A DNA stretch of 24,772 nucleotides. Source: Candidatus Altiarchaeota archaeon (GTDB taxonomy: Archaea > Altiarchaeota > Altiarchaeia > IMC4 > QMZM01). The DNA lies in contig JAFGDV010000010.1 in the NCBI GenBank assembly GCA_016931955.1, positions 1-24,772 on the forward strand, read 5' to 3'. Under the pieces are notes generated by a model. It was not told the DNA's origin. It did not search any database and saw only the letters and a program-made list of their open reading frames with translations. The position numbers and the translations under genes were made by a program. This document shows, in pieces, positions 4,740 to 24,699 of this stretch. Every line of letters begins with the position of its first letter. Positions within the stretch are counted from its first letter, which is position 1.

Positions 4740-4985
4740 TCAGTCTTTTACGACGACTACCTTGCTGACCGCGTTCACTGAGTCGTAGGGGATTATGAGG
4801 TTGCCGTCTTTGTCTTTTGGGTAGGCTATCTTCGGCAGTTCCTCACCGACGGGCTCCACTATCAGGGATATGAACTGCCCTGTTTTTTCGTCGATGACTA
4901 TGTCGTCTACGCGTCCGAGTTCTTCGCCACTTACCGTGATAACTGGTTTCCCACCCAGCTGCCTTGCGATTATATAGGTAACCAT
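4740..4985 (-). CDS. PRC-barrel domain protein
   Basis: LGGKPVITVSGEELGRVDDIVIDEKTG...IPYDSVNAVSKVVVV matches the archaeal PRC-barrel pattern. Confidence 0.9.
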   Translation of the reverse strand: MVTYIIARQLGGKPVITVSGEELGRVDDIVIDEKTGQFISLIVEPVGEELPKIAYPKDKDGNLIIPYDSVNAVSKVVVVKD

Positions 4986-5068
4986 CTTTTTAAGCCTCCA
5001 GACATAGGAGTCTGACTTATATTATTCTATTTATTAGAATATATATCCTTAAAAATGTACTGGGAAAA

Positions 5069-5986: not shown

Positions 5987-6027
5987 AGAACATATATATA
6001 TACTAATCTGCTAAATGAGTTTATACC

Positions 6028-7521: not shown

Positions 7522-7928
7522 TAGACGTCTTCTGGCTCGAATACCTTCTTTCCAGTAACCTCGAATCTTCTACCCTTTATCTTCCTGTAGAAACACGACC
7601 TGTATCCTGTATGGCATGCCCCGCCCTTCTGTTCCACCTTGAAGAGGAGCGCGTCTCCGTCGCAGTCTACGTAGAGTTCCTTGACCTCTTGTACGTGACC
7701 TGAACTTTCTCCCTTCATCCACAGCGTTTTCCTGCTTGTAGAGTAGTAGTGCATCTTCCCTGTCTCAAGGGTCTTTTTTATTGCATCCATGTTGGCGTAA
7801 GCCACCATCAAGACCTCATCTGTTTTATGGTCCTGTGCGATAGCCAATACAAGATCGGGATTACCGTCAACCTCCCTGAACTTCAGCGACTTAGATAGGA
7901 ATTCAGCGTCGGCATTTATACTCTCCAT
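7518..7928 (-). CDS. hisI: Phosphoribosyl-AMP cyclohydrolase
   Basis: [42 protein letters not shown]. Confidence 0.97.
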
Positions 7929-7958
7929 AACATATAATTAGTATCCGAAATTATAAAG

Positions 7959-8312
7959 ATGGTAGACGGAAAGAAGGATAACAGAAGGCACACAGGGGCG
8001 AAAAAGCAGACCGGTGGAGAGGACGAGCTAATACGCGTCCGTGTTCCTAGACGCGGCCAGATTCTGGGCGAGGTCGAGCAGCTTCTCGGAGACAGGAGGA
8101 TGAGTGTCCGCTGCACCGACGGCCACACAAGGCTTTGCAGGATACCTGGCAAGATCAGGAGAAGGATTTGGATCAAGGAGGGTAATATCGTCCTCGTCGA
8201 GCCATGGGAGGTTCAGACCAATGAGAGAGGAGATATCCTGTGGAGGTACACCTACCAGCAGGCTGAGTGGCTGGAGAGGAAGGGCTACCTGAAAAGCCTG
8301 GAAGGGGACTGA
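7959..8312 (+). CDS. eif1a: Translation initiation factor aIF-1A
   Basis: VEQLLG..RMSVRCTDGHTRLCRIPGKIRRRIWIKEG, GDILWRYT. Confidence 0.96.
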   Translation: MVDGKKDNRRHTGAKKQTGGEDELIRVRVPRRGQILGEVEQLLGDRRMSVRCTDGHTRLCRIPGKIRRRIWIKEGNIVLVEPWEVQTNERGDILWRYTYQQAEWLERKGYLKSLEGD

Positions 8313-8322
8313 TTCTGGAGCT

Positions 8323-9027
8323 ATGATCAAACAGACTGAATACGAGCTTAGGAAGATTTCTGAGGGCGTCTTCGACAGATCGACGCTGATGACCCTCTAT
8401 GATCTCTCAAAAAAGAACCTCATCAGAGAGCTAAAAAGCATCGTCGCCACAGGCAAGGAATCGAATGTCTACCATGGCCTACTGAATCGAGAAGAGATCG
8501 CCGTAAAGATCTACTTGGTAGAGACCTCAGACTTCAAGACCATGGAGAAGTATCTGAGGGGTGACAGGCGTTTTTCCTCCTGGAAGAACCACCGTCATCT
8601 CATCTATAACTGGGCTAAGAAGGAGTTCAAGAACCTCTCAAGACTTCAGAGCGTAGTAAGATGCCCTAAGCCTATAGGAGTCGAAAACAACGTGCTGGTG
8701 ATGGAGTTCATCGGCGAAGACGGAATCGCGGCCCAGAGATTGAAGGATTCCCCGCCAGAAAACCCTAAGAGATTCTTCAGGAAGATCAAACAGTATATGA
8801 AAGCCATGTATAAGCAGGGAATCATTCATGGCGACCTCTCCGAATACAACATCCTCAACTGGGGCGAACCTGTGATTATCGACCTCTCGATGGGTGTTCT
8901 CCTCGACCACCCATTGGCTGAGGAGCTTTTAAGGAGGGATATCAGAAATGTCCTGAACTACTTCAGGAAGTTCGGCATAGAAGAAGACGAAGAGAAAGTC
9001 CTTGATTTCGTGAGGAAGAAATGTTGA
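8323..9027 (+). CDS. rio1: RIO1-type serine/threonine kinase
   Basis: ATGKESNVY, AVKIY, WAKKEFKNL, LVMEFIG, HGDLSEYNIL, IIDLSMGV; lies directly after aIF-1A. Confidence 0.93.
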   Translation: MIKQTEYELRKISEGVFDRSTLMTLYDLSKKNLIRELKSIVATGKESNVYHGLLNREEIAVKIYLVETSDFKTMEKYLRGDRRFSSWKNHRHLIYNWAKKEFKNLSRLQSVVRCPKPIGVENNVLVMEFIGEDGIAAQRLKDSPPENPKRFFRKIKQYMKAMYKQGIIHGDLSEYNILNWGEPVIIDLSMGVLLDHPLAEELLRRDIRNVLNYFRKFGIEEDEEKVLDFVRKKC

Positions 9028-9440
9028 CTGAAAGGATCAGTGCCTTGGGCCACCGTAATGTTTCAGCCAGGCATGAGACCACCTTTGAGGTTACTAAAGA
9101 AAAGCATCTGACGCCTCGAGGAGACTGTATCATTTCCGTTTCTGCAGACAAGGCATTCCCTGAACTTTCAGAGGAATTCAAGAAAACGCTCAGGGGGGAT
9201 GACACCGTCCTTGAGATAACGATAAGCTGCGCCGGCTTATCTGAAAAGGTCATCGCCCACGGAAGCTGCGATCTGCAGCTGTCTCATCCAACCGATCTCG
9301 TTGTTAGGAGGAGCTCCTTCATCTGTGAGAGGACGCTTGCAATTAGGGCTGACAAGGCTGCCATAGATTTCAACAGAGAGCTTGTGAAGAGCCTGTCAGA
9401 GAATAATCCAGTAGAAATCGAACTGAGAATACTGGACTGA
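9021..9440 (+). CDS. DUF371 domain protein
   Basis: GHRNVSARHETTFEVTKE.HLTPRGDCII, DLVVRRSSF..ERTL.IRADKAA. Confidence 0.9.
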   Translation: MLTERISALGHRNVSARHETTFEVTKEKHLTPRGDCIISVSADKAFPELSEEFKKTLRGDDTVLEITISCAGLSEKVIAHGSCDLQLSHPTDLVVRRSSFICERTLAIRADKAAIDFNRELVKSLSENNPVEIELRILD

Positions 9441-9502
9441 GATTTATTGCACTATTTCCAATGAAGTACATGGTCTTAGGACTACGTTCCCACTGATTGA
9501 GA

Positions 9503-10405
9503 ATGGATAGGATAGCCTTTCTAGCGCAGCTTGCCGCAGTCCTTGAGGTAAGCACCGAAAAGCCAGGTAATGTTTCCCCAGCTCACGACTTCGCCGACAC
9601 AACCTACGGAGACTTTCTCTTAAGCTCCGTCGCCGTAGGCTTCATAGCAAAGGAGTCTGCTTTGAGGGGGCTTCAAGCAGGCAAGGGTGAGATCCCCTTC
9701 AGCAAGATAGGAGTCGGCGGACTTATATTAGAGGGCGTCAAAGAGATCCAAAGATCAAACATCAGAGGAAACACCCACTTCGGCACACTTTTGCTCTTCG
9801 TTCCCTTAGCGGCGGCGGCAGGCTACTGCATATCCAGGAGCATCCCACTCAGGAAGGGTTTACGGAGTACCGCTGCTGATATCCTCAAGGATTCCTCCGT
9901 ACAAGATTCAAGAAACTTCTATGAAGCCATTAAACTAACTGGCGTCGGAGGCCTGGTTGAGCCCTTAGAGGATCCTGAGGTATCATTCCACGATCTCATG
10001 AAGATTTCTTCCTCAGTCGACCGGATAGCGGAGGAATTATCTGATGGGATGGAGATCACCTTCGAGTTTTCCGTTCCTGCCTTGGATAATATCCTCCAGA
10101 GGACTGATGCTATGATGGACGCCATCCTGCAGACTTACCTCATCATCTTGTCGGAGTTCCCCGATACCTTGATCGCTAAGAAACTCGGCATCGAAAAATC
10201 TCGGGAGGTCTCGGTGAAGGCATCTGAGGCCTTAGAGGCTGGTGGCGTATTCAGTGAGGCTGGGAAGACTGCTATAGAGGAATTCAACGTCTTCCTTCGA
10301 ACGGACGATAACATCCTTAATCCAGGGACCACCGCTGACTTGGTCGCTGCAGCAGTCTATGTTTGGCTCCTCTATAATTATTCCCAGGAAGCCCAGCTGC
10401 CGTAG
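9503..10405 (+). CDS. citG: Triphosphoribosyl-dephospho-CoA synthase (archaeal CitG family)
   Basis: LEVSTEKPGNVSP, NTHFGTLLL, PDTLIAKKLG, NPGTTADLVAA. Confidence 0.88.
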   Translation: MDRIAFLAQLAAVLEVSTEKPGNVSPAHDFADTTYGDFLLSSVAVGFIAKESALRGLQAGKGEIPFSKIGVGGLILEGVKEIQRSNIRGNTHFGTLLLFVPLAAAAGYCISRSIPLRKGLRSTAADILKDSSVQDSRNFYEAIKLTGVGGLVEPLEDPEVSFHDLMKISSSVDRIAEELSDGMEITFEFSVPALDNILQRTDAMMDAILQTYLIILSEFPDTLIAKKLGIEKSREVSVKASEALEAGGVFSEAGKTAIEEFNVFLRTDDNILNPGTTADLVAAAVYVWLLYNYSQEAQLP

Positions 10406-11229
10406 ATCTTTTCCCGCATCATCTGAGCCTTCTCTCTGTTGAATCCCTTGACCTCCACTCCCCCCCTAAGCTCCTCTATTGTGGGGATGTAGGCGTCTGA
10501 CTCTAGATTCCTGTATGGGCAGACTGGGTAGAATGGGTGCTGTTTTCCAACCCTCACCCCTGTGACGCCGCTTTCCGGGCACGCGCCTCGCATAAAACCC
10601 CTGCATCCAATAAGCCCTTCCAGTAGGGGCAACTCCTCCACCAATTTAGCGTATAGTTGTGATGCGATGCACCTGAACTCTGGGGAGGATCTAACACACA
10701 ACCTCAGAGACAGTAGGTTCAGCAGCGACCTCAGGTTTATGGTCACATGGTATACGCCAACGGCTTGCGCGAACGGCAGAACATAGCGTGATATCTCCCT
10801 CGGCGTCTCCTTGGAGATCATCTGAGCATAGTTTTTTATCGAATCATGGAGGCTTGACTCCATGACTTCTCTGATCTCTTTTTGTGTCAGCAGATGCGTT
10901 GGCAGGATCACTTCATAGGTTTTTTCTTTTTTTTCTATTCCCTCACTCACTTCTATGTAGCGCGTTGAATAGCCTGAATGCGACATCATCCTATGCTCCA
11001 GGAACTCTGGGGCGTTTCCCTTGGACATCTTGACGTCGAATTTTATGGTTACATGCTCTAACGCAGAACCGTAGTCGTTTGCCACCAGCATTTTGAAGAC
11101 TTTTTCGTCTTTCACCTGAGGCGGCACCCCACTCAGCCTCGCAGAGTACACTACCTCCTTCCAGGCATCCTCTCCGCCTACTACCTTGAAGTTCCAGACT
11201 TCGGGTTTAACAAGCTTAACCTCTCTCAT
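10378..11229 (-). CDS. thyX: FAD-dependent thymidylate synthase
   Basis: SALEH, variant ThyX motif EHRMMSHSGYSTRY, PREISRYVLP, NLRSLLNLLSLRLC. Confidence 0.85.
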   Translation of the reverse strand: MREVKLVKPEVWNFKVVGGEDAWKEVVYSARLSGVPPQVKDEKVFKMLVANDYGSALEHVTIKFDVKMSKGNAPEFLEHRMMSHSGYSTRYIEVSEGIEKKEKTYEVILPTHLLTQKEIREVMESSLHDSIKNYAQMISKETPREISRYVLPFAQAVGVYHVTINLRSLLNLLSLRLCVRSSPEFRCIASQLYAKLVEELPLLEGLIGCRGFMRGACPESGVTGVRVGKQHPFYPVCPYRNLESDAYIPTIEELRGGVEVKGFNREKAQMMREKIYGSWASWE

Positions 11230-11326
11230 CCTAACCAGATAATAAAAAATGGTTTTCTAATTAAATAAGAAAAAATACCCAATACATTACAATATTTGAA
11301 CATATAAACAGCTAAGAGAGAAAAAA

Positions 11327-11521
11327 ATGGAAGGAAAAGTTAAATGGTTTAATCGGAATAAAGGGTATGGTTTTGTCCAAGGCGACGACGGCGAAGACTA
11401 CTTCGTACACCACTCAGCAATCGCTGAAGGTGTTGTTTTGAACGAAAACGACCAGGTCTCCTTTGAAGTGACTGAAACCGAACGCGGAAAACAGGCCAAA
11501 GATGTTAGACTGAAGGAGTAA
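11327..11521 (+). CDS. cspA: Cold-shock protein
   Basis: GKVKWFN, RNP1 KGYGFV, RNP2 YFVHHSAI. Confidence 0.95.
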   Translation: MEGKVKWFNRNKGYGFVQGDDGEDYFVHHSAIAEGVVLNENDQVSFEVTETERGKQAKDVRLKE

Positions 11522-12577: not shown

Positions 12578-15500
12578 ATGTTTGATGATATGTGTCGAAG
12601 GTTTATCTGTTTTTTGCTTTGCCTGCTACTGCTTGTGTTTTTTTGTGGTCTTGCTTCAGCCCCCCAAGAGGGTGAGTCGATAAGTAGTGTTCAAGTGGGG
12701 GATAGTATTCCAGTGATCGTGGTCTTGAGGGGGGATATAGGCAAGTTACCAGAACATAGGCTGCAGGTTTCGGCTGCTCGGGAGAGGGTTCTCTTTAGAT
12801 TGGATAAGCAGAAATTCAAGCTTAAGCATAGTTACTCTGCGATAAATGGTTTTTCTGGGGAGGTTTCTGAGGATGAATTAGGGAGGCTTTTGGATGACCC
12901 TGATGTTTTAGGGGTTTATAGGGATAAAAGGGTTCATGCTTTCCTACCTCAAAGTGTTCCTCTGATAAATGCCTCCGCCGTCTGGGGTCTACAAGTCGGT
13001 GTAGAGAATATCACTGGTAAGGGAGAGACCATCTGCATCATAGATACCGGTGTGGATTATACGCACCCTGATCTTGGGGGTTGTAATCCAATGAACTATA
13101 AGCTTTCAGGGAATACAGTGGATTACACTCGCCAATCACCTCACCCTTATCCAGATGATTACGACAATATCTGGAATATCACTCAACCGGGTTTTGAGAG
13201 GATTGCAGTTCACTTTAAGAATTTTAGCCTGGAGATGCCGAGTTTCTTTTTTGATGCCCTTGATAGGATCTACGTCTATGACGGGAACATGGTAGGGATT
13301 GCCGCCTACCGTGGTGTCAACGTCCATGATGTCTGGACCCCATCTGCTGAGGGAGATACAATCTATATCCGTTTAGTGTCTGATGCTTCAGTTAATGACT
13401 ATGGTTTTTACATCGACAGGATTATTAATGGGACGGCTAATCAGACTCTTAACTGGTCTTCTTGTTCTAAGGTGGTTGGTGGCTGGGATTTCGTCAACTC
13501 TGATTCGAATCCGTGGGATGATGAAGGACATGGAACCCACTGCGCAGGTATTGCTGCCGCTAACGGTGCTGTGAAGGGTGTTGCTCTGGATGCGAGGATC
13601 GTGGCAGTGAAGGCCTTGGACGACACTGGAAGCGGTTGGAATTCGGACGTTATTGCAGGGATTGACTGGTGCGTGGATAACTCCCTCAGCTATAACATCT
13701 CTGTTATCTCAATGAGTCTTGGAACGGACTCAGTCTATGGGAGCTACTGCGATGATGAGGATCCTCCTACGACCTTGGCCATAAATGCCGCCGTCGCGCG
13801 AAATATCTCTGTCGTGGTTGCAAGCGGAAATGGAGGCCATAATGTGGGTATCTCGCTTCCTGCATGCATACAGAATGCCACGCCAGTTGGCTCCGTGGAC
13901 GATGGCTCGGGTGGGACGACCGCTGATGTTTTTTCTTCATTCACGGACAGGGACTCTGGTTTTCCTGAGATGCTTCTCGCCCCGGGCAAATGGATCACAT
14001 CAACTGTTCCCGGAGGTGGATATGATACTTGGAGTGGCACTTCGATGGCTACTCCCCATGCGGCTGGTGCTGTTGCTTTGTTGAAACAATATCTTAGGCT
14101 CAGTAATCAGGATCGGACTCCTCAGGAGATCGAGGATTTGTTCAATGATACTGGGAGGAGGGTCTACGACAGCGGAACTGGTTTATATTTTTCCAGGATT
14201 GACATCTATAGCACTATCACAGACCTCGATAATCCCCCAGTCGTTTCCTTAAATAAGCCGTTGAATGCTTCTTTCTTAGACAGAGACTACAGCCTTCTTA
14301 ACTGGACCTGTGTTGATCCGGAAGGGTTGGATATGACTTCTTGGGTCTACGGAGACAACATAAGCGCAAACACTTTACTGACCTCAAATAATTGCTCCAG
14401 CAATGTCTCATGCTCTTATAACTGGACTAACCTAAGTGAAGGGGTCTATTATTGGAGGGTAAATTGCAAGGATAACCTGAGTTTAACTAGTTCATGTATC
14501 TTGGGCTTTGAGGTTGACATGACTGCGCCAAGTGTCGCCTTTACCTCACCTACACCCAATAATGGATCGGTTGTTGACTTTAACACAATAGGGTTTAATG
14601 TAAGCCACTCTGAGGCGAACCCTGACACCTTGATGTTCTACTTTAACGGGGTGGCAGAAGATGACGGCTATTCTGGAGGCAACACTCTCATAGAAAAAAT
14701 CCTTTCTAATGGCTTCTATAATTTCTCTGTTTGGTTGAATGATTCCGCCGGTAATGTGAACCAAACTGGTATACGATACTTCACAGTGAATGCCACGCCT
14801 CCAACGGTGGCTTTGGTTTCGCCTCCGGCTCTGTCGTTCTCTAATGGAACGGTTAATCTTACATGTAATGCCTCAGATAACATGGGACTTGAATCAGTGT
14901 CGTTGTATTGGAACTATTCTGGGGGCTGGCATGTGAACGAAACAAAGAACGTTTCCGGGAAATCTTCTCTAGCATGGTTTCATAAAAGCGTTTCCGGGGA
15001 GGGATTGTTTGGATGGAATTGTCTTGCATGCGATAATTCCTCCAACTGCGCCCTTTCTCCAGGTAATCTCTCCGTGACAGTGGACACTGTTCCACCTGCA
15101 ATCAACTCGTATTCGATTAATCCGAGGGTTGCAATCAATGGAAGTAATGTTTCATTGTCCTTGGATGTTACAGACTCTCACCTGAATTCTTCGTGGGCCT
15201 TCGTTTATCCCCCAAACCTGTCTCAGACAGGGATTAGCCTCCCAGGGGATTATAGCACTGGTATATTAGGGTGGCATAATGTCTCCTTCCACGTTAATGA
15301 TTCCGCTGGTAATAAGGCCTCCGTAGAGGACTATTTTGTAGTAGGCGAAGAGATGGTCTTTAATTCGTCTTTTCAGGGATACAACAACACCTCGTTGAAT
15401 GTCACTTTAAGGGTTTTCTTTGGGGATAGCCTTATAGCCTTCAACCAGTCCGCGGGCAATGTCAGCATGACTCTAGCAGACTACGTCTATGACCTCGAGT

Positions 15501-16501
15501 TTTCAGTCTTCAACAACTCTCTGGTGGTCTTTCTCCTGGGCGTTAATCTTTCAGGGAACAACAATAGGGTGATTGGCTTCGACATTCTCACCTCCGTTGG
15601 GGATTATCTAGTAACCTATGCCGTGAACAGCTCTTATCTGATGGAAAACGCCTCCCTGAATCTGAGTTATTCTGGTTCGGGGTACACGAACAGCAACTAC
15701 TTGGGAGTCTATAGGTGTGCTTCTTGGAATTTCACGGCCAGGAATTGCTCTGGGGCCTGGGAGGAAGTCAACGCCAGCAAGTTCGCAGCCGGCGAGTATT
15801 TCCTCCTTAACGTCAGCGGTTTCTCTGCCTTTTCTGTTAAACAGGAGCCCTACTGCGGTGACGGCTTTATAGGCGCTGGCGAGCAGTGTGACGGCAGTAA
15901 CTTCGGCGGAAAAACGTGCCAGAGTTACGGATTCGATTATGGCTCTCTCTCCTGTTCTGCTTCCTGCACGATATCCACTGCAGGGTGTAGTTACAGTGGA
16001 GGGGGAGGTGGTGGCGGCTCCTCGGGTGGTGGCGGAAGAGGGGGTTTGAAGGTTACCGTAAGCTGCTTTGACGGCATAAAGAACTGCCACGACAACAGCT
16101 GCGAGGAAGGCATAGACTGCGGTGGGCCGTGCAGAGCATGCCCCAGCTGCGATGATGGTGTACAGAACCAGGGAGAACAGGGAATAGACTGCGGGGGGCT
16201 GTGTAAGCCGTGCTCTGTTACCACGTCGACGACAAGGTTTATCAGGTCAACTACTTCAACGCTTTTCTCTCCGATAGCAACGATGGGTTCTACAATGCCG
16301 ACATCGACTTCATTGGTTGGTTCTACGACAACCCTCACAGTATACGAGAAGACAAGTGGGGGATATGAGGGTCTCCTGGTAGCGGTCCTTGTTTTAGCGG
16401 TCTTGGTGTTTGCCCTCCATATCAGGTATACTAAACATGCTAAGGCAAAGGTCGAAGAGGAGGAAAGCGATCTTAGAGAGGCCATCTCCGGCAATGATTA
16501 A
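12578..16501 (+). CDS. Membrane-anchored S8 (subtilisin) serine protease with I9-like prodomain, CUB-like insertion, Ig-like domains and Cys-rich repeats
   Basis: Catalytic motifs IIDTG, GHGTHCAG, VASGN, SGTSMATPH; signal peptide; prodomain (YSAINGFSG); VSGFSAFSV (PGF-pre-PGF-like end); Cys repeats, Thr/Ser stalk, TM. Confidence 0.93.
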   Translation: MFDDMCRRFICFLLCLLLLVFFCGLASAPQEGESISSVQVGDSIPVIVVLRGDIGKLPEHRLQVSAARERVLFRLDKQKFKLKHSYSAINGFSGEVSEDELGRLLDDPDVLGVYRDKRVHAFLPQSVPLINASAVWGLQVGVENITGKGETICIIDTGVDYTHPDLGGCNPMNYKLSGNTVDYTRQSPHPYPDDYDNIWNITQPGFERIAVHFKNFSLEMPSFFFDALDRIYVYDGNMVGIAAYRGVNVHDVWTPSAEGDTIYIRLVSDASVNDYGFYIDRIINGTANQTLNWSSCSKVVGGWDFVNSDSNPWDDEGHGTHCAGIAAANGAVKGVALDARIVAVKALDDTGSGWNSDVIAGIDWCVDNSLSYNISVISMSLGTDSVYGSYCDDEDPPTTLAINAAVARNISVVVASGNGGHNVGISLPACIQNATPVGSVDDGSGGTTADVFSSFTDRDSGFPEMLLAPGKWITSTVPGGGYDTWSGTSMATPHAAGAVALLKQYLRLSNQDRTPQEIEDLFNDTGRRVYDSGTGLYFSRIDIYSTITDLDNPPVVSLNKPLNASFLDRDYSLLNWTCVDPEGLDMTSWVYGDNISANTLLTSNNCSSNVSCSYNWTNLSEGVYYWRVNCKDNLSLTSSCILGFEVDMTAPSVAFTSPTPNNGSVVDFNTIGFNVSHSEANPDTLMFYFNGVAEDDGYSGGNTLIEKILSNGFYNFSVWLNDSAGNVNQTGIRYFTVNATPPTVALVSPPALSFSNGTVNLTCNASDNMGLESVSLYWNYSGGWHVNETKNVSGKSSLAWFHKSVSGEGLFGWNCLACDNSSNCALSPGNLSVTVDTVPPAINSYSINPRVAINGSNVSLSLDVTDSHLNSSWAFVYPPNLSQTGISLPGDYSTGILGWHNVSFHVNDSAGNKASVEDYFVVGEEMVFNSSFQGYNNTSLNVTLRVFFGDSLIAFNQSAGNVSMTLADYVYDLEFSVFNNSLVVFLLGVNLSGNNNRVIGFDILTSVGDYLVTYAVNSSYLMENASLNLSYSGSGYTNSNYLGVYRCASWNFTARNCSGAWEEVNASKFAAGEYFLLNVSGFSAFSVKQEPYCGDGFIGAGEQCDGSNFGGKTCQSYGFDYGSLSCSASCTISTAGCSYSGGGGGGGSSGGGGRGGLKVTVSCFDGIKNCHDNSCEEGIDCGGPCRACPSCDDGVQNQGEQGIDCGGLCKPCSVTTSTTRFIRSTTSTLFSPIATMGSTMPTSTSLVGSTTTLTVYEKTSGGYEGLLVAVLVLAVLVFALHIRYTKHAKAKVEEEESDLREAISGND

Positions 16502-16534
16502 TCGTTATATATGCTTAGAAAAACAAATAAGGAT

Positions 16535-17593
16535 ATGCGGATGAAAGAATCAAGCCGAGGTATGCTTATAAAGGCCGGTGTCTTGTTTTTTGTGTTCATA
16601 GTAGTCTACTCTGCTGACGCGCAACTGCCCAGCAGGAGGTACCTCGAAGTCGGCATCTCTGGTAACTGCACAAATCAGACTGTGACAATACGCACTACCG
16701 ACAGAAACGATAACAGCTTGTATGGGGTCGACATAGAGGTCTACTTTAACCATTATCTAATCCATGACCTTAGGACCGACTCTGAGGGGATTGCGTCTTT
16801 TACCCCCGCCTTTGTGGGCGAATACGAGTTACAGCTAACGAAAGCTGGATACCAGGGCAGGGAAGTAGACCTCCTGGTGGGGTACTGTGGTTCATGTTCG
16901 GATGGGATACATAATCAGGGAGAACAGGGGATAGATTGCGGGGGACCATGCCAGCCCTGCACGACCACCTCGACCACCACCACCACGACCACGACGACCA
17001 CGACCACGACGACCACCACCACGACCACGACTACGACGACGACCACTACTACAACCACTACTACGACGACTACCTCAACAACCTCGACCTTGGCTGAAGA
17101 GTCGAAGGGGTTTGATATGGGACTCTTTGGCATAATTCTTGCAGCCGTTGTTGTCTTGTTCGTTCTTTATAGTAGGTTCAGGGGTGGGAAGGGAACTGTG
17201 GAAGCTGAGGAGGAACCCAAGAGTGCGCTTTATAGGGGCTCAATGGGGGCTGCGTCAGCCGAAGAAAGGTATAGGGGCTTCAAGGAAAAGGCTGAGGAAC
17301 CGCAGGGGGATAAGCTGGAGGAAGGCTTCGATGAGATCAAGAAGCTGAATGAGGAATTGGAGACCCTCAAAGAGGGGTTAAAGGAGAACCACCGGTATGC
17401 TGGATTTATGGAAAGCAAGGGCAGTGGTTCTCTGAAGGATGTCTCCCAGAGCATCAAGGGGGGGCAAGCAGTTGGGAGGAAGAGTGTGTTTGATATCAAC
17501 TTGGCGGGCATCACGGATTTAGCGGGCAAGATGAGGTTCCTTGATGTGCCTGGACAGAGTGGGGGTAAAAAGAAGGGGGAGAAGAAGGGTTGA
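16535..17593 (+). CDS. Membrane protein: carboxypeptidase-regulatory-like domain, Cys-rich repeat, poly-Thr stalk, TM, cytoplasmic tail
   Basis: TDSEGIASF..GEY.L..TKAGY, CSDGIHNQGEQGIDCGGPCQPC, long Thr run, TM. Start ambiguous (16511/16535/16541). Confidence 0.82.
   Translation: MRMKESSRGMLIKAGVLFFVFIVVYSADAQLPSRRYLEVGISGNCTNQTVTIRTTDRNDNSLYGVDIEVYFNHYLIHDLRTDSEGIASFTPAFVGEYELQLTKAGYQGREVDLLVGYCGSCSDGIHNQGEQGIDCGGPCQPCTTTSTTTTTTTTTTTTTTTTTTTTTTTTTTTTTTTTTTSTTSTLAEESKGFDMGLFGIILAAVVVLFVLYSRFRGGKGTVEAEEEPKSALYRGSMGAASAEERYRGFKEKAEEPQGDKLEEGFDEIKKLNEELETLKEGLKENHRYAGFMESKGSGSLKDVSQSIKGGQAVGRKSVFDINLAGITDLAGKMRFLDVPGQSGGKKKGEKKG
16961..17089 (+). repeat. ACN-codon low-complexity tract (poly-Thr)
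   Basis: About 43 codons, almost all ACC/ACG/ACT/ACA. Confidence 0.9.
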
Positions 17594-17594
17594 A

Positions 17595-19082
17595 TTATTT
17601 CTTTTTCAGTTTGTAGGCGACTGCCACGACTATGATAAGTAGGACCGCTGCTGGTAACAGTATTCCTGTGCCACCTCCCTTGGTCGGCTGTGTCGTCGTT
17701 GTCTCACTGGCCGCTTCTGTCGTCGAAGTCGTTGTCCCCAGCATTACTACTGGCTGAGTCCTGGTTGTCGTAGTAATCTTTCCCATGATTTTCTGCTTCA
17801 GTGTGTCGCAGTCTTGGGGGTCTTCTTGACATTTCCCCAGGTTACATGCGGCGTCTGTCGTGGTCAACTGCTCTATCCTCTCTCTTGCCTCCTCGTATCT
17901 GCCTTCGTTGTATAGTGTCTCCGCTTCTTCATAGAGCGTATAGGTCTGCCTTTCTTTTATGTAGATTTCCCTGGCCTTGAACAGGTATACAGTATGGTCG
18001 GCGCCGCTTACTATTAGATCGTTTCGACCGTCGTTGTCTACGTCTCCTATGTATAGCTCAGTGGATGTTCTATATGGGTCATACGTCCACTGCTCTTCTC
18101 CATCCTTACCCAGTACGTAGATCTTCTTTGATGCGGCCGCTATCTCTTTGACGCCGTCCCAGTCAAGGTCGCCGCTGTGAACGAAGTAGACCTTGTCTGT
18201 CGTATTATGAGTCCATAGTTCTTTTCCGTTGGCGTCCAATGCGTAGACCTTGTCTGAAGCTAGTATTATCTCCTTTTTTCCGTCTTCCTCCAGGTCCGTC
18301 ACGTGCACGCTTCTTACTATTCCCTCAGTCTTATACTCCCATTTCAGTTCGCCGTTGGTTTTTAGGACTGTGAGGTCAGGATATGAGCCGACCAGTATCT
18401 CGTCTTCTCCGTCGCCGTCTATGTCCTCTACTTTGAGGTCGTATGCTGAGCCATCCAGTCCATAGCTCCATAGTATGTTTCTGTCGGCGTCGTAGGTGAA
18501 GACCTGCGATCCAGCCAGTATGACCTCTTTTTTGCCGTCTTTGTTTGTGTCGTAGACTGCCATGCCCCAGGGGAAGTCTCCTCTGATGGTCTGCTGCCAT
18601 ATGACCTCCAGGTCTTTGTCGAATATGTATACTGTGTGGCTTCGAACGCTGCCTGCGCCAGCTATTATGTCGTCGGATCCGTCGCCGTCGAAGTCCTCCA
18701 CCACTATCTTCTTCACGTCATTGTCTGTCTTGACTTTCGTTATCACTGTGCCATTCAGGTCCAAGACGCGGAGGCTTGCCGCCCCCACCACAATCTCTTT
18801 TATGCCGTCTTTTTCCAGGTCGACTGTAGCTACCGAGTAGACGTAGGATCGTGCGTCATACACCCACTTCTGGTTCACCTTTGAGTCCAATAGGTATAAC
18901 TTGCTGTCATATGATGTCACCAGTATTTCCTTCCCTACGTTGTCGTCTACGTCTTCCACCAGTAGGTCGGTGACCTCCATCCTAGCGATGTGTTTGTTTT
19001 CAAGTGTTATGTAACCCTGGGATTGGGCGCTGCCTAATGCGATGAGGAATATGCATAGCACCGCGAGTGTTCTTTTTTCCAT
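17595..19082 (-). CDS. Secreted, membrane-anchored beta-propeller protein (FG-GAP/VCBS/PQQ-like repeats)
   Basis: About 8 repeats of DxDxDGxxEI...xYxLDxxGxxxW, a TPR-like helix pair, Thr stalk, TM and KKK tail. Confidence 0.88.
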   Translation of the reverse strand: MEKRTLAVLCIFLIALGSAQSQGYITLENKHIARMEVTDLLVEDVDDNVGKEILVTSYDSKLYLLDSKVNQKWVYDARSYVYSVATVDLEKDGIKEIVVGAASLRVLDLNGTVITKVKTDNDVKKIVVEDFDGDGSDDIIAGAGSVRSHTVYIFDKDLEVIWQQTIRGDFPWGMAVYDTNKDGKKEVILAGSQVFTYDADRNILWSYGLDGSAYDLKVEDIDGDGEDEILVGSYPDLTVLKTNGELKWEYKTEGIVRSVHVTDLEEDGKKEIILASDKVYALDANGKELWTHNTTDKVYFVHSGDLDWDGVKEIAAASKKIYVLGKDGEEQWTYDPYRTSTELYIGDVDNDGRNDLIVSGADHTVYLFKAREIYIKERQTYTLYEEAETLYNEGRYEEARERIEQLTTTDAACNLGKCQEDPQDCDTLKQKIMGKITTTTRTQPVVMLGTTTSTTEAASETTTTQPTKGGGTGILLPAAVLLIIVVAVAYKLKKK

Positions 19083-19114
19083 GTTTCTATTATTTGTCTT
19101 CTTGTATTAAATAC

Positions 19115-21067
19115 TTAGCCCTTGAAGTATCCGCGCTTGATGTAGTATACTAATTCGATCAACAGTAACAGGATTGTCACTCCTAGGAGGTATGGGTACA
19201 TATCCCATACCACGTCCACTTGTTCTTTTTGGATCCCAGCACCTTGGTCTATTGTCTCTATGTCGAGGAATTCTGCTATGTTTGATTCCCTCTCATTAAC
19301 TAGGTTTACTGCTATTTTTTCCTGGTTTCCGAGGTATTCTATGGAGTAGACTCCTACCTCGTCCAAGACCATGTTGGCTGCTGTTATCCTCTTGTTTGAT
19401 GGCGTCGTCACATTCACATTTTCCTTGATCGGCAGGTATTCTCCAGTCTTATGGTTTTGTTGGGTTGTCGCTGTCTCTACCTTGTTGATCCATTTGATGG
19501 TCTGGTACCAGAATATCGGCATCGAGGAGCTGTAGTAGAAGTTGCTCCATGTTGGGTTCGGGTTTAGTCCGACGTAGAGTACCTTGCCTTCGCCGTACAC
19601 CCCGTATACTATCTCAGGCACCCCGGAGACTTGGACTATCACTTCCGTGTTTTCTTTGGCTTCTGCCTTATAGTATCTGCTCACTATGATGCCTTCCAGT
19701 ACTGTGTCCTTCAGTATCTCGTGTTCGCTGAGTGTGGTTATCCCTGAGTCCATTGTTTTGATCCATTCAAGTCTTACAGGAAGCATCTGCTTCAGCTCTG
19801 CTTCTCCGATGTCCGCTAGATCCGTGGATGCTAGTATTATCAGGTTGCCTCCCTTTTTCACGTATTCCTCCAGTTCGGTGTACATTCCCTTCAGGAGCAG
19901 TTCTTTGTTCACCTCAGCATGTATTATGGTGTCGAATTCCTGGATCTCTGGTAGCACTGGCAGCACTGTCTTCGTTAGTCTTATGTCCGGTGACGCCTTG
20001 AGCGCGTATTCCAGGTACGTGTCTGAGCCTTCATCCGTTATCAGCAGTGTGGAGTATTTTCTGATTCTCGGGATCGCGACGTATGCTGTGTTATCCACCG
20101 CTAGATTGTCTTCGGTGTTTATCTTCACGCTCACTATGTGGGGGTCTGCATTAAGCGAATCCTCTACATATATGAGCCTCGTTGATTTTGCAGGAATTAT
20201 CTCATTTATCTCTTTTATGTTTTCGCCGTCCACCTGCACTTGTATCTTGGCTCCCCAGTCTCCTGGGTTGTAGTTTTGTATTGTCGCTGTTAGGTAGAAT
20301 CTTTCTCTGTTTGTCAGGAATCTTTTCGAATCTATTTCGGTGATGGCTAGATTGTTTCCGCCTTCTGCCACCTTTATCAGCCTTGTGTTTATGCCGTCTG
20401 CTGACGCTATCTTGTTTGCGAGTTCTATGTCTAAGCCCTCGCTTGTTGCATAGTCTGAGAACACATACATTTCTTTGTCTTCTTTTTGGGAGAGTGTGTC
20501 TTTTGCGAATAGTATGCTGTCTCCTATATTTGTTGGGGTGTCTGCGCAGCTGACTTGGTTCAGTATTCTTTGGGCTGTTTCTGCGTTTCCTTCTTTGAGT
20601 GCCATCACTGGGGTGTTCTCTGCCAGTATTATCGTGTATGTTGTCCCCTGAGCTGATTCGTCTATTATCTGTTTGGCGTATTCTTTAGCTTTCTGGAACC
20701 GGTTGGGTTGTACGTCGTTTGCCTGCATGCTCGCCGAGGTGTCTATTACCAAAGCTATGTTTCCTTGGGGTTTTTTCTCGGCCTTTGTTGTCATGTTGGG
20801 GTTCACTATCGCCAGAACCAGTACTGTGATGGCCAGTATCTGTATTAGTAGCAGGGGGTCTCGGATGAATCTCTTCGGTAGTAGCCTGAATCTTTTGTCT
20901 TTTTCCATCCGGGTTATGAACATTATGGTGGGGAATTTTATTTTTTTTGGTTTAGGCTTCAGTAGGTATAGTAGGATTACTGGTATTATCAGTAGCAGCC
21001 CTATCAGCGCCCAGGGGTTTGCCAGCATTAGCGTTTGTATGTTCAGTATCTCCGGCGGTAGTTGCAT
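19115..21067 (-). CDS. BatA-domain / von Willebrand factor A domain membrane protein
   Basis: NPWALIGLLLIIPVILLYLLKPKP..FPT (BatA), MIDAS IDTSASM, T..GDSI, VFSD, DNL..DN, GATase-like YVKKGGNL, NL...ESNI, C-terminal TM. Confidence 0.9.
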   Translation of the reverse strand: MQLPPEILNIQTLMLANPWALIGLLLIIPVILLYLLKPKPKKIKFPTIMFITRMEKDKRFRLLPKRFIRDPLLLIQILAITVLVLAIVNPNMTTKAEKKPQGNIALVIDTSASMQANDVQPNRFQKAKEYAKQIIDESAQGTTYTIILAENTPVMALKEGNAETAQRILNQVSCADTPTNIGDSILFAKDTLSQKEDKEMYVFSDYATSEGLDIELANKIASADGINTRLIKVAEGGNNLAITEIDSKRFLTNRERFYLTATIQNYNPGDWGAKIQVQVDGENIKEINEIIPAKSTRLIYVEDSLNADPHIVSVKINTEDNLAVDNTAYVAIPRIRKYSTLLITDEGSDTYLEYALKASPDIRLTKTVLPVLPEIQEFDTIIHAEVNKELLLKGMYTELEEYVKKGGNLIILASTDLADIGEAELKQMLPVRLEWIKTMDSGITTLSEHEILKDTVLEGIIVSRYYKAEAKENTEVIVQVSGVPEIVYGVYGEGKVLYVGLNPNPTWSNFYYSSSMPIFWYQTIKWINKVETATTQQNHKTGEYLPIKENVNVTTPSNKRITAANMVLDEVGVYSIEYLGNQEKIAVNLVNERESNIAEFLDIETIDQGAGIQKEQVDVVWDMYPYLLGVTILLLLIELVYYIKRGYFKG

Positions 21068-21561: not shown

Positions 21562-22509
21562 TTATTCCCTTTTCTTTGCCATCAGGTATGCGAATCCTGA
21601 GCTTGTTAGTATCACTATTAATGCCACACCTGCTGAGCTGAATTCCGGTACCGTTGGAATAGTCGTCGTAGTCGTCGGTAGAGTTGTAGTCGTCGTAGTC
21701 GTCGGTAGAGTTGTAGTCGTCGTAGTCGTCGGTAGAGTTGTAGTCGTCGTAGTCGTGGTGGTGGTCGTCGTGGTCGTGGTGGTGGTCGTCGTGGTCGTGG
21801 TGGTGGTCGTCGTGGTCGTTGGTGGTGTGTCCCAGTCGAATGTTGTGTATATTACGTCGTTTCCGCAGGTTTGTGTTACGTGTATGTCGCTCATGGTTGC
21901 TTGTGGTGGTAGTCCTAGTGCGGATTTAGGTATTTTGGCTTCGATTATGTAATTTTTTAGGCAGTGTGAGCTGCTCCCTAGGGTGCATCCTGCTGGGTAG
22001 TCGTTTATCGTTGCTTGTATGTATACTAAGTTGGTTGCGTATCCCATGCTTGTTCCGCAACTTAGTATGCGGCTTGGTTCTCCCTTTACGATCGACCAGT
22101 CGGGATTGTAGCATACTTGTCCCATGACGCCTGTTAGTCTGATTCCGTATTCGTAGCCGTCTTCCCCGGTTAGTGGGTTGTTGTCGACGTCTAGTGCCAG
22201 GTCTCCTGGTTGGTAGGTACCACTTCCTGTTGGCGGGAAGGATGTCACGATTGCGAAGTATGCGTATCCTACTTCGTCGTCGCAGTACATTGCTTCTATG
22301 TCGTAGAGTTCTCCTCCGGCTGGCATGGCACTGCTGCTTACTGGGTAGTCTTCTAGTGTGTAGTCGCAGGTTGGGCTGCTGGGTGTCCAGTCTGTGAAGG
22401 GTGTTACGCCCCAGTCAGCTAGGTTTCCATCTATTGTGTAGGGTGGTCCTGCTGTGGCTGTTGTCAGTGTTATGAGAAGCATCAAAAAAACCATGATTTG
22501 TTTTTTCAT
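21562..22509 (-). CDS. PEF-CTERM sorting-domain surface protein
   Basis: Signal peptide, TIDGNLADW domain, Thr stalk, VPEFSS + TM + KKRE. Confidence 0.88.
   Translation of the reverse strand: MKKQIMVFLMLLITLTTATAGPPYTIDGNLADWGVTPFTDWTPSSPTCDYTLEDYPVSSSAMPAGGELYDIEAMYCDDEVGYAYFAIVTSFPPTGSGTYQPGDLALDVDNNPLTGEDGYEYGIRLTGVMGQVCYNPDWSIVKGEPSRILSCGTSMGYATNLVYIQATINDYPAGCTLGSSSHCLKNYIIEAKIPKSALGLPPQATMSDIHVTQTCGNDVIYTTFDWDTPPTTTTTTTTTTTTTTTTTTTTTTTTTTTTLPTTTTTTTLPTTTTTTTLPTTTTTIPTVPEFSSAGVALIVILTSSGFAYLMAKKRE
21661..21819. repeat. Coding tandem repeats: 3 x 27 bp and 3 x 21 bp
   Basis: AGTCGTCGTAGTCGTCGGTAGAGTTGT x3 (21661-21741); GGTGGTGGTCGTCGTGGTCGT x3 (21757-21819). Confidence 0.92.
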
Positions 22510-22655
22510 GTCAAATCTACCTTTTAGGCCTTTTTGGGGTGTAGACTATATTGAACATTGGAGTATAAAAAGCACTTTAACTTAGTCCAATAAACTTGTT
22601 TAGTCTTTTTCTGATTTTTTTTATTCCTAAAAGTGGCCTATTTGTGGTAAAATGT

Positions 22656-22758
22656 AAAAAAAAGAAAAGAGGGGAGAGTTTTATTCTCTCTTCCTTATCA
22701 GGTAGATCATTCCCGGCACCAATAGGGATAGTATTCCTATTGCAAGCGCCGGCTCTGG
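22656..22758 (-). repeat. Direct repeat copy A (PEP anchor-coding region plus terminator)
   Basis: Highly similar to 23428-23532; 22665-22713 is identical to 23439-23487 (49 bp). Confidence 0.92.
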
Positions 22759-23235
22759 TGTCGATATTGTTTCTGTCTCGAACGTCACATCGTCGACTGC
22801 GAAGTAGTTGTAGTTGTTGCATACTACACTCACGTTGTCGACTGATGCGAAGTTTGCATTCAAGAACTGTGGTGTACTAGTCATTGCTATCGTCGCTGAG
22901 GTTCCAACCAAGACACCGTCATCGTATCCTTCAAAGTAGCAGCTTACACCTGTCCCTGAGAAGTATGCTCCCGTGAAGTCGACGTCCTGCGGGAACTCCA
23001 TCCATCCGCCGTAGTTGTGTGTGGCTATTCTCGTATTCGGCGAGCTTGGAGTATATGGTGGTTGTTCCCAACTCCAATAGAACCACTCTGAATCCCAGGT
23101 TATGCCGCCGTAGTTTGTGGGCAGCTGGGGCGAATCCCCATATGCGCAGACTAGGTCGTCGAAGTTTATCACCGTCGCCGCGGCTGTTGCTGCTAGCATG
23201 ATGACTGATGCTAGCATTACTATCATTTTCTTCAT
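22681..23235 (-). CDS. PEP-CTERM-like surface protein
   Basis: GGAGGTG SD at 23245-23251 favours ATG 23235; signal peptide, ATVINFDDL...FAVDDVTF domain, TPEP + TM + RKRE. Confidence 0.88.
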   Translation of the reverse strand: MKKMIVMLASVIMLAATAAATVINFDDLVCAYGDSPQLPTNYGGITWDSEWFYWSWEQPPYTPSSPNTRIATHNYGGWMEFPQDVDFTGAYFSGTGVSCYFEGYDDGVLVGTSATIAMTSTPQFLNANFASVDNVSVVCNNYNYFAVDDVTFETETISTPEPALAIGILSLLVPGMIYLIRKRE

Positions 23236-23244
23236 TCTGTTTTT

Positions 23245-23323
23245 CACCTCCTTTACATTATCGGTTTATGTCGCCCCGCCTCGGCGAATTTTGATTGATA
23301 GATTTAGGCTTCGTTCCTTAAAA
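23245..23323 (-). promoter_or_regulatory. TATA box plus conserved leader motif and SD, copy A
   Basis: TTTTAAGG (23316-23323), AAAATTCGCCGAGGCGGGGCGA (23271-23292), ACCGATAATGT, AAGGAGGTG. Confidence 0.7.
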
Positions 23324-23427
23324 GACAATGTACAAGTTTTCTAAAGAAGAAAAATCTTATGTACTACATATTCTTTATCTCATATATCACAGTACATACT
23401 TCAAGCTGATGCGATAGCATTTAGTAC

Positions 23428-23532
23428 AAAAAAAAAGAAAAAGAGGGGAGAGTTTTATTCTCTCTTCCTTATCAGGTAGATCATTCCTGGCACAACTAGG
23501 GATAGTAGTCCTATTGCTAACGCAGGCTCTGG
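23428..23532 (-). repeat. Direct repeat copy B (PEP anchor-coding region plus terminator)
   Basis: Matches copy A at 22656-22758. Confidence 0.92.
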
Positions 23533-24045
23533 CACCGTTGTCCCAGTGTATGGGCCTGTCGTCCCAGAGACGGTGAATGCTGCCGGGCACATATTTTCTG
23601 CAGCGATCTCCTCTGCTGTGTGTGCTTGGAATCCTGCGTCTCTCACCTCTATGGTGTATGTTCCTGGTGTCAGGCTTATTGTCGCTGAGCCTGAGCTTAG
23701 TCCCTCTCCGTAGGTACCGCTCTCGCATCCCCATTCGCTTGGCACGGGTGTTGTTCCAATCAGTACGATGTCTACGTATATCTCGAAGTAGTCTCCTGGG
23801 CAGCAGCAGTCATCCACTTGTATGGTGACGTCTTTAGCTTCTGTCAGTGTCAGTATCCATCTGTCATATGCCCACCCAGTAGTGCTGCCGTAGACGCAGT
23901 CAATTGTTCCTGTGGATGTGTTCCAGCCGGATGCGTCCACTGGTATGTCGCTGTGTGGGTGGAATATCGTCGGGTCGCCTCCGTTGTCGGCGGTTGCCAT
24001 ACCTATTGCTGTTAATATCATCAGTATTGTCAGTATTTTTTTCAC
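23455..24045 (-). CDS. PEP-CTERM-like surface protein
   Basis: GGAGGTGG SD then GTG start; signal peptide; DCCCPGDYFEIYVD..LIGTT...LTPGTYTIEV domain; VPEP + TM + RKRE. Confidence 0.88.
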   Translation of the reverse strand: MKKILTILMILTAIGMATADNGGDPTIFHPHSDIPVDASGWNTSTGTIDCVYGSTTGWAYDRWILTLTEAKDVTIQVDDCCCPGDYFEIYVDIVLIGTTPVPSEWGCESGTYGEGLSSGSATISLTPGTYTIEVRDAGFQAHTAEEIAAENMCPAAFTVSGTTGPYTGTTVPEPALAIGLLSLVVPGMIYLIRKRE

Positions 24046-24053
24046 CTTATCTC

Positions 24054-24138
24054 CACCTCCTTGACATTATCGGTATTCTGCTTCGCCCCGCCTCGGCGAA
24101 TTTTAGGGCTCAAATATTTAGGTTTTATTTCTTATAAA
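24054..24138 (-). promoter_or_regulatory. TATA box plus conserved leader motif and SD, copy B
   Basis: TTTATAAG (24131-24138), the identical 22-mer at 24083-24104, ACCGATAATGT, AAGGAGGTG. Confidence 0.7.
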
Positions 24139-24384
24139 CCAATATTTATGAAATTCTAAAATTATCGGTTTTTTGTACTTTCTTGTGTCCATGTGTTTTT
24201 CCCATGTTCTCTTTTTCCTCTATACTGCAGGGCCATAGTACGAAATAGCTTGTCTTCGGCGGCGTAATAAGGCGCTAGAATAAAGTCGTCGACCAACCAA
24301 ACCCCCCCCTGATTATTTCTTCGATTTATTCCCTATAAGGCGGCTTTAGATTAGTTCACAGAAGACGGCTGATTCAGTCCCTTA

Positions 24385-24699
24385 TCAAAATCCAAGAACC
24401 ACGCGGATCCTTTCTGAGACTTCCTTCTTCAGTATGGAGCCTATCTCTCCAATCTCCCCCAAGATCAGGGTCTTAGAGAGGGTTGCTATCTTGTCCAATC
24501 TTATCACAGAATCTGTTTTAAGGCCGCTTACCTTGAACTCTGGATGGTCTTCAGCTACCAACACAACTGCGTCGTTTGTTTTATCTGAAGCCTTAGAGGA
24601 TATGAAGGACACCACCACATCATGTTCTCTCTCCAGCAGAACAAGGGCGGGTCTTAGTTTAGTCTCGCTCAGGTCAGTGAAGGGGAAATCAACAACCAC
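24385..24699 (-). pseudogene. PemK/MazF family toxin, probably 5'-truncated
   Basis: FPFTDLSETKLRPALVL, FISS, SGLKTDSVIRLDKIATL. The usual N-terminal MxxGDIVLVP is missing and an in-frame TAG lies two codons upstream of the GTG. Confidence 0.8.

Follow-up and report, generated by a model that had tools for sequence, protein, structure and literature searches.

Sorting tails and shared DNA flanks of two adjacent genes for predicted surface proteins in an Altiarchaeota genome

Haft et al. (2006; PMC1569441) describe the PEP-CTERM signal of bacteria as a modular domain, some 24 residues long, whose copies resemble each other more within a species than across species. According to the same account, most PEP-CTERM genes are single-gene operons lying behind long intergenic regions, most of those in Proteobacteria have a common upstream DNA motif, and the hosts are bacteria that have an outer membrane and genes for exopolysaccharide (Haft et al., 2006; PMC1569441). 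In archaea, the PEF-CTERM signal (TIGR03024) and archaeosortase C (TIGR03762) have been described (Haft, Payne and Selengut, 2012, as cited in PMC5244752 and PMC6098224). ArtA of Haloferax volcanii, which acts on the PGF-CTERM signal, is presented in the sortase part of a 2018 review as the only experimentally studied member, cleaving the C-terminal helix to yield a lipid-anchored surface glycoprotein; that review treats the Altiarchaeota, for one of which (Candidatus Altiarchaeum hamiconexum) a double membrane is reported, separately from the sortase topics (PMC6098224). Here, we describe three adjacent genes, called gA, gB and gC, whose products end in tails of this general kind. They lie on contig JAFGDV010000010.1 of a Candidatus Altiarchaeota archaeon (assembly GCA_016931955.1), and the whole stretch of DNA that was analysed (positions 1 to 24,772, forward strand) is referred to as the window. 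The window is contig C21 of a genome labelled G000, a 1.55-Mb (megabase) assembly of 46 contigs that is 92% complete. With a probability that we put at roughly 0.6, gA and gB are archaeosortase substrates whose ends have been homogenised by recombination between neighbours. A full-text search of the literature found no description of such a sorting system in Altiarchaeota.

Common flanks around dissimilar passengers

The open reading frame (ORF) gA (23455-24045, minus strand) encodes a predicted secreted protein of 196 amino acids (aa), in which a signal peptide is followed by a beta-sandwich passenger and a sorting tail of the form VPEP-TM-RKRE (TM, transmembrane segment; VPEPALAIGLLSLVVPGMIYLIRKRE). 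The adjacent ORF gB (22681-23247, minus strand) encodes one of 188 aa, likewise with a signal peptide, whose passenger is a jelly roll and whose tail reads TPEP-TM-RKRE (TPEPALAIGILSLLVPGMIYLIRKRE); its database form, P0001, begins at the ATG at 23235 and has 184 aa. Both tails carry the PEP-CTERM layout, namely a C-terminal P-E-P motif, a hydrophobic helix and a basic cluster, and 26 residues of tail are common to the two proteins.

How far does this likeness extend at the DNA level? A 3′ constant block on the minus strand (23430-23532 for gA; 22656-22758 for gB) runs from the PEP motif of the tail through the stop codon into a T-rich downstream tract, and was picked up by a repeat finder as a direct repeat of 103 nucleotides (nt) with 91% identity. 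The longest exact run within it is 49 nt (23439-23487 in gA; 22665-22713 in gB) and comprises the last 10 codons, the stop codon and 16 nt downstream; over the 27 tail codons, 21 are identical, three differ synonymously and three non-synonymously. On the other side of the genes, also on the minus strand, a 5′ leader block of gA (24054-24104), which holds the motif AAAATTCGCCGAGGCGGGGCGA and the ribosome-binding region, has its partner in front of gB (23245-23292). The two blocks are related by an exact repeat of 22 nt (23271-23292 / 24083-24104) and by a repeat of 21 nt at 95% identity (23245-23265 / 24054-24074), which holds a GGAGGTG ribosome-binding site. Both flank motifs, with up to three mismatches allowed, are confined to gA and gB in the whole genome, and therefore the flank-sharing set has two members, not three.

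The third gene, gC (21562-22509, minus strand), is an ORF for a predicted secreted protein of 315 aa that consists of an N-terminal domain, to which a Pfam scan assigned no family, a long poly-Thr linker and a PEF-type VPEF-TM-KKRE tail (VPEFSSAGVALIVILTSSGFAYLMAKKRE). The tail scores 55.6 bits against a profile built from nine tails of the genome, belongs to a class different from that of gA and gB, and stands behind a leader that is not in common with theirs. Linkers rich in Thr, like that of gC, typically precede the tail in ArtA/PGF-CTERM-type proteins. The linker (21660-21827, minus strand) is coded by perfect 27-nt and shorter tandem units found by the repeat finder, and the stretch of 27-nt units could differ in length among strains. 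The available run data, which are contigs of a single DNA run, are uninformative on this length because contigs of other organisms pile up on the low-complexity stretch, the only place in the window where such pile-ups of unrelated contigs occur. The initial annotation had taken the locus for an array of cassettes with a near-identical tail, 49 base pairs (bp) of perfect identity across the stop codon, a conserved leader and a third gene ending in VPEF-TM-KKRE. All of these details are borne out; the array itself is not, as it comes down to two copies of the flanks with gC standing apart.

The same annotation had called the mature domains of gA and gB dissimilar, and this too holds on closer comparison, the passengers not being homologous over their full length. 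A whole-protein BLASTP alignment of gA and gB extends scarcely beyond the tail, and when the signal peptides and tails are removed the sole similarity left is a 14-residue match with an E value of 0.009. A profile of the gA family aligns with gB in the 26 tail columns only, and a profile-profile comparison of the two families gives one local match of 30 columns at a probability of 87%. The predicted model of gB (predicted local distance difference test score, pLDDT, 90.5) is a jelly roll nearest to DUF4465/BtuJ and to CBM51/CBM6 modules (best E 2.1e-5, TM-score about 0.5). That of gA, which is weaker (pLDDT 68), has its best fold matches among pre-peptidase C-terminal and collagen-binding domains (E 1.8e-5). 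We conclude that the passengers, as far as sequence and predicted models go, did not arise by duplication and divergence but represent two distinct beta-sandwich domains of the binding type. The PEP-CTERM zinc protein ZepA was considered for gB and rejected, the H-x-H-[FY]-H motif being absent from gB; ZepA is described in its own report as having no archaeal homologues (PMC10957091).

Other predicted envelope proteins are neighbours of the three genes in the window (12578-21067): a subtilase of 1307 aa with immunoglobulin-like domains, an FG-GAP beta-propeller of 495 aa and a BatA/VWA membrane protein of 650 aa. On the other side, about 340 nt upstream of gA and on the same strand, lies an ORF of 104 aa for a PemK/MazF-like toxin (24385-24699, minus strand).

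The tail family and its candidate sortase

A loose tail pattern caught 14 ORFs in the genome, nine of which have true VPE[F/P/S] tails. When aligned, these fall into a PEF class (n = 5, gC included), ending ..TP-A-F-A-Y-L.., and a PEP/PES class (n = 4), ending ..L-V-P-G-[ML]-I-Y.., the residues P, E, L and Y being invariant across all nine. The profile of the nine tails finds 11 places in the genome, which are the nine intact tail-bearing ORFs and two orphan tails, and detects the family in 18 of 41 related genomes; when the profile is built from the PEP/PES class alone, it has matches in only 3 of the 61 genomes of the phylum (four in G000 and one each in G002 and G025). A degenerate back-translation of VPGMIY.IRKR gave no matches in Joint Genome Institute (JGI) metagenomes. 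The orphan tails, VPES.. (G000:C39:793-876, plus strand) and VPEY.. (G000:C23:18880-18969, minus strand), end open frames of 78 and 106 aa that have no plausible start, signal peptide or passenger, and they are possibly recombination remnants or decayed genes.

Neither of the established tail models fits this family well. Against TIGR03024 (PEF-CTERM; cut-off 23 bits) the tails of the genome score 12.6-15.7 bits, the tail of gC being at the lower end with 12.6. Against TIGR02595 (PEP-CTERM; cut-off 16 bits) gA scores 18.6 bits with the tail alone, 16.5 in the genome scan and 12.7 as a whole protein, gB as a whole protein gives no match at E<=10, and three of the nine tails match at E<=1. Judged by sequence, the tails are a lineage-specific signal that falls between the PEP-CTERM and PEF-CTERM models and is captured well by neither, and 'PEP' is one of several third-position variants (P/S/T/F) within what reads as one tail family. 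The archaeal PEP-type sorting subfamily proposed in the initial annotation is thereby upheld as a lineage-specific signal between TIGR02595 and TIGR03024, but not as a separate PEP system.

Two further observations concern tails on other proteins. Two small PEF-tailed proteins of the genome have dockerin type I domains (locus L002 on G000:C11, 2816-3205 and 9036-9446), and orthologues ending ITFCGK..VPEF in several relatives suggest a cohesin-dockerin-like surface assembly. Homologues of both the gA and the gB passengers (P0006, P0023 and P0032) can also end in a third type of tail, in which ..GL[IV][ML]PW precedes a helix and RRR; no NCBIfam model matches this type, and it is possibly another uncatalogued sorting signal.

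Which enzyme would act on these tails? The genome has one gene of the exosortase/archaeosortase family (G000:C23:27556-28404), so that a sortase-like gene, for which the initial annotation had proposed a search, is present. Its product exceeds the cut-offs of TIGR04178 (57.3 and 54 bits; cut-off 23) and of PF09721 (48.8 bits; cut-off 25.7), and stays below that of every named subtype (score/cut-off in bits: ArtC 25.3/100, XrtE 28.3/150, 8TM_EpsH 27.6/105.55, XrtH 26.3/86 and XrtA 22.7/208). Cys178, Arg223, His244 and His246, which we take to be its catalytic residues, are invariant in seven Altiarchaeota sortase sequences. The predicted active-site residues are, according to the 2018 review, generally conserved in the sortase superfamily (PMC6098224). 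A search for a second sortase in the genome with a type-Y query returned the same gene and a fragment of 12.6 bits with stop codons only.

The sortase gene belongs to a cluster (G000:C23:24833-31484; 4834-11484 of locus L004) with the order PEF-tailed beta-helix protein, PES-tailed protein, family-4 glycosyltransferase, sortase, uridine diphosphate (UDP)-sugar dehydrogenase, 253-aa ORF and FemAB-like/GNAT protein, two tail-bearing genes thus lying just upstream of the sortase. It is 65% identical to the sortase of G025, a genome of another family, and 32% identical to that of G001, a genome of the same genus. Since a PES-tailed gene is found near the sortase both in G000 (one gene between) and in G025 (adjoining), the PEP/PES class may travel with this sortase type, as these two genomes suggest. 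The G+C content of contig C23 is 44.4%, as compared with about 47% for most contigs, and this, together with the identities to the sortases on G025:C89 and G001:C68, hints that the sortase module has been laterally transferred.

Recombination, selection and the origin of the gB passenger

If the tail and its DNA were exchanged between genes, the same passenger should be met with different tails and the same tail with different passengers. Both are seen. Among 5.8 billion proteins the passenger of gA has six relatives, and an orthologue was found in G021: P0005 ends VPET..PGMIYLVRRKR, P0006 has a different membrane tail, P0007-9 have none, and the G021 orthologue (54% identical) has a PEF-class tail that hardly differs from the one on its unrelated neighbour. 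Conversely, P0010, which comes from another sample, has a third passenger, unrelated to those of gA and gB, in front of their tail (24 of 26 residues identical). At the DNA level, three of the five adjacent pairs compared share upstream DNA as well as the tail around unrelated passengers (G000:C21, G001:C68 and G021:C27), and the other two share the tail only. In the G001:C68 pair 139 nt upstream are 89% identical and 84 nt of tail 97.6% identical. This pair (locus L044, 1321-3700) and that on G021:C27 (locus L040, 173-2055) have promoter-region DNA at 89-93%, their flanks being unlike those of the window.

We infer the following course of events. gA, gB and gC would be single-gene units for secreted surface proteins, each product starting with a signal peptide, continuing with a beta-sandwich passenger of the binding type and ending in a signal of three parts: the motif VPE[P/S/T/F], then a membrane helix, then a basic end. 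The single sortase would recognise the tail, remove the helix and hand the protein to a surface anchor. The flank identity of gA and gB would stem from recent recombination, be it by gene conversion or because one unit was duplicated in tandem and its middle part then replaced, and the outcome would be two unrelated passengers in one promoter-leader and one tail-terminator. Because the last 10 codons and 16 non-coding nt are identical, the codon-level and non-coding identity points to recombination or conversion and not to selection alone. The recombination or conversion between flanks that the initial annotation had suggested therefore gains from this identity, from orthologous passengers with differing tails and from the flank-sharing pairs of two relatives; its suggestion of alternative inserts or strain variants between the flanks does not, none being seen in the contigs of the one DNA run.

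The passenger of gB had been likened in the initial annotation to bacterial PEP-CTERM passengers, and the wider family agrees with this. When all 1.84 billion representatives were scanned, 648 relatives were found at E<=1e-3. Among the best 150 of these plus P0003 (n = 151), a custom pattern assigns PEP-CTERM-type tails to 116, PEF tails to three, an Altiarchaeota PEF-class tail to one, other membrane tails to eight and none to 23; TIGR02595 matches 25 of 47 aligned members at E<=0.01, gB itself not being among them. A quick, unrooted tree search over 63 rows (11 rows dropped for length) places gB within a supported clade of 12 rows (Shimodaira-Hasegawa-like approximate likelihood ratio test, SH-aLRT, 95), which have three PEP-type tails, two PEF tails, one Altiarchaeota PEF-class tail, gB's own, one other and four none, and almost all rows outside the clade have PEP-type tails. 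Because the family is otherwise mostly found on bacterial-type PEP-CTERM tails, the gB passenger was probably acquired laterally and then refitted with the local tail. Among 10 homologues looked up by cluster, P0021 alone is annotated with an organism, Candidatus Altiarchaeota, and a search of JGI metagenomes for the genomic context of P0003 gave 121 pattern matches, none of them confirmed.

Several points weigh against homogenised archaeosortase substrates. The processing and lipid anchoring of gA, gB and gC are predictions; in two RNA runs from the study that gave the DNA run, sequence words of the stretch are nearly absent, and none of the listed runs containing the stretch is recorded as RNA. 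One sortase was found for two tail classes; with completeness at 92%, the assembly may lack a second enzyme. Neighbouring tails are in general only modestly more similar than others: among the anchored tails, drawn from 43 tail ORFs, identity averages 0.60 in 13 adjacent pairs, 0.53 in 59 pairs from the same genome and 0.50 in 748 pairs between genomes. Because adjacent tails are only modestly more alike than others, homogenisation appears patchy, that is, local and recent where present and not general. The 30-column profile match may reflect a very distant shared motif in the two passengers. As for the lateral origin of the gB passenger, the tails of its closest relatives (P0002, P0003 and P0012) score below the PEP-CTERM cut-offs, and with a quick unrooted tree the direction of transfer is itself conjectural.

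A broader scenario goes further than homogenised substrates and is offered tentatively, the odds being in our estimate against it. Altiarchaeota, with their two reported membranes, would run exosortase-like sorting of their own type, and foreign passengers, those of bacterial PEP-CTERM proteins included, would be slotted by recombination between neighbours into a resident frame of promoter-leader, tail and terminator, repeatedly in at least three genomes and leaving orphan tails behind.

How else could the flanks have come to be alike? One alternative is an active cassette system, in which leader and tail serve as recombination arms and passengers, some of them bacterial, are swapped within the population to diversify the surface. 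In its favour, the borders of homology are those of the module (from the PEP motif to 26 nt past the stop codon, and upstream ending at the start codon), P0010 has yet another passenger on the same tail, pairs with both flanks in common recur in G001 and G021, and the genome has two orphan tails without a proper gene. Against it, only two units of the genome have these flanks, and the PEP/PES subtype is restricted to 3 of 61 genomes. The G001 and G021 pairs have flanks of their own, unlike those of the window, so that there is no universal recombination arm. A tail-only search of 5.8 billion proteins returned gA, gB and P0005 only; it did not recover P0010 and is thus incomplete. In the DNA run, which is possibly of the source sample and available as contigs only, so that rare variants are invisible, no joints, loose ends or alternative paths occur at the constant flanks. 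No integrase or recombinase family was detected among the 20 window ORFs scanned (E<=1e-5), and neither a recombinase beside the array nor more than two cassettes, as in integron- or shufflon-like systems, is found at the locus. Taken together, we regard an active cassette system as unlikely.

A still poorer prospect is that selection alone has kept the ends alike, the tail for recognition by the sortase and the leader and terminator for common regulation, with no recent exchange of DNA. The invariance of P, E, L and Y would be expected on this account, as would a conserved upstream regulatory motif like that reported for PEP-CTERM genes (Haft et al., 2006; PMC1569441). The leader core, AAAA-NN-CGCCGAG-N2-5-GGGCR, has five matches in the 61 genomes and none in a reversed control, and in four of these a tail-bearing gene lies downstream (gA, gB, G004:C40 and G021:C28), so that the core precedes such genes in two other genera as well; the fifth, in G059, is inside a coding region and was set aside as a chance match. 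Against it, the last 10 codons are identical at every synonymous site, as are 16 non-coding nt, and the other PES-class tails of the genome use different codons for nearly the same residues as gA and gB. The tail and upstream identities of the G001:C68 pair likewise speak against it.

The nature of the leader was considered from an alignment of gA, gB and two relatives. A stem of 5-6 bp is present in the minimum-energy fold of three of the four leaders; a stable RNA hairpin was rejected, the two G000 leaders folding no better than shuffles (z 0.12 and -0.54), and a small hairpin is possible there, without support from the folding energies for G000. Because the G000 leaders fold like shuffles and the G004 copy has a mismatch within the stem, the motif may be a DNA site instead of an RNA element. 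An Rfam scan of the leader gave nothing near threshold (RAGATH-19, 25 bits versus a gathering score of 85.6).

Finally, a chimeric or duplicated join produced by the 49-nt repeat is very improbable: repeats of this length do break short-read assemblies, and the contigs of a second assembler (Logan; an independent assembly, perhaps of the same source sample and so not independent data) end inside repeats, but these contigs cover 21790-22694 and 22684-23468 with no letter differences and in the same order of gC, gB and gA tail, and gA and gB are complete ORFs with homologues elsewhere.

Comparison with known sorting systems

Three described systems come closest. In ArtA/PGF-CTERM the motif is PGF and the sortase belongs to another subfamily, and the present locus, unlike ArtA, is known from sequence alone. 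With PEF-CTERM and archaeosortase C there are several points in common: the host is archaeal, five of the nine tails, including that of gC, have the PEF motif, and the sortase is of the same superfamily. The tails nevertheless fall well short of the PEF-CTERM model and the sortase far short of archaeosortase C (25.3 bits versus 100), and gA and gB have PEP, not PEF.

A parallel is offered by the bacterial PEP-CTERM/exosortase system (EpsH; TIGR02595 and PF09721), as far as the account of Haft et al. (2006; PMC1569441) describes it. Common to both are a C-terminal signal of three parts that includes P-E-x, a modular tail borne by passengers that are mostly unannotated and have nothing else in common, tails that are closer within a genome than between genomes, single-gene units with long upstream regions and a common upstream DNA motif, and a sortase gene placed among glycan-synthesis genes. 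The family of the gB passenger, too, is mostly PEP-CTERM-tailed. The differences are as follows: the host is an archaeon of the Altiarchaeota instead of a bacterium; the helix ends in P-G/A-x-[AI]-Y-L followed by RKRE, whereas the bacterial tail has a Gly-rich helix and RRR; P, S, T or F may stand at the third position of the motif; no named exosortase subtype is even approached by the score of the sortase; and the identity of the flanks extends into non-coding DNA on both sides.

What would such a locus add? It would extend the known exosortases and archaeosortases by a sortase of unclassified type and by a sorting signal not yet catalogued, and the pair gA and gB would be unusually clean sequence evidence, beyond mere conservation, for a sorting tail exchanged as a DNA module together with the regulatory ends of the gene. 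The locus is relevant to the question of how microbes adapt surface proteins gained by lateral transfer to their own export machinery, and models of tail and sortase specific to Altiarchaeota would allow better annotation of their surface proteomes. The locus, put forward in the initial annotation as a candidate for an undescribed system, does not reveal an undescribed principle, since the general pattern was already given for bacterial PEP-CTERM proteins (Haft et al., 2006; PMC1569441), and the locus looks like an archaeal version of the bacterial modular exosortase tail system rather than a new cassette machine. On this comparison it is best read as the archaeal counterpart of the picture drawn by Haft et al. 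(2006), to which it adds a tail variant, an unclassified sortase, an archaeal host and flank identity reaching into non-coding DNA.

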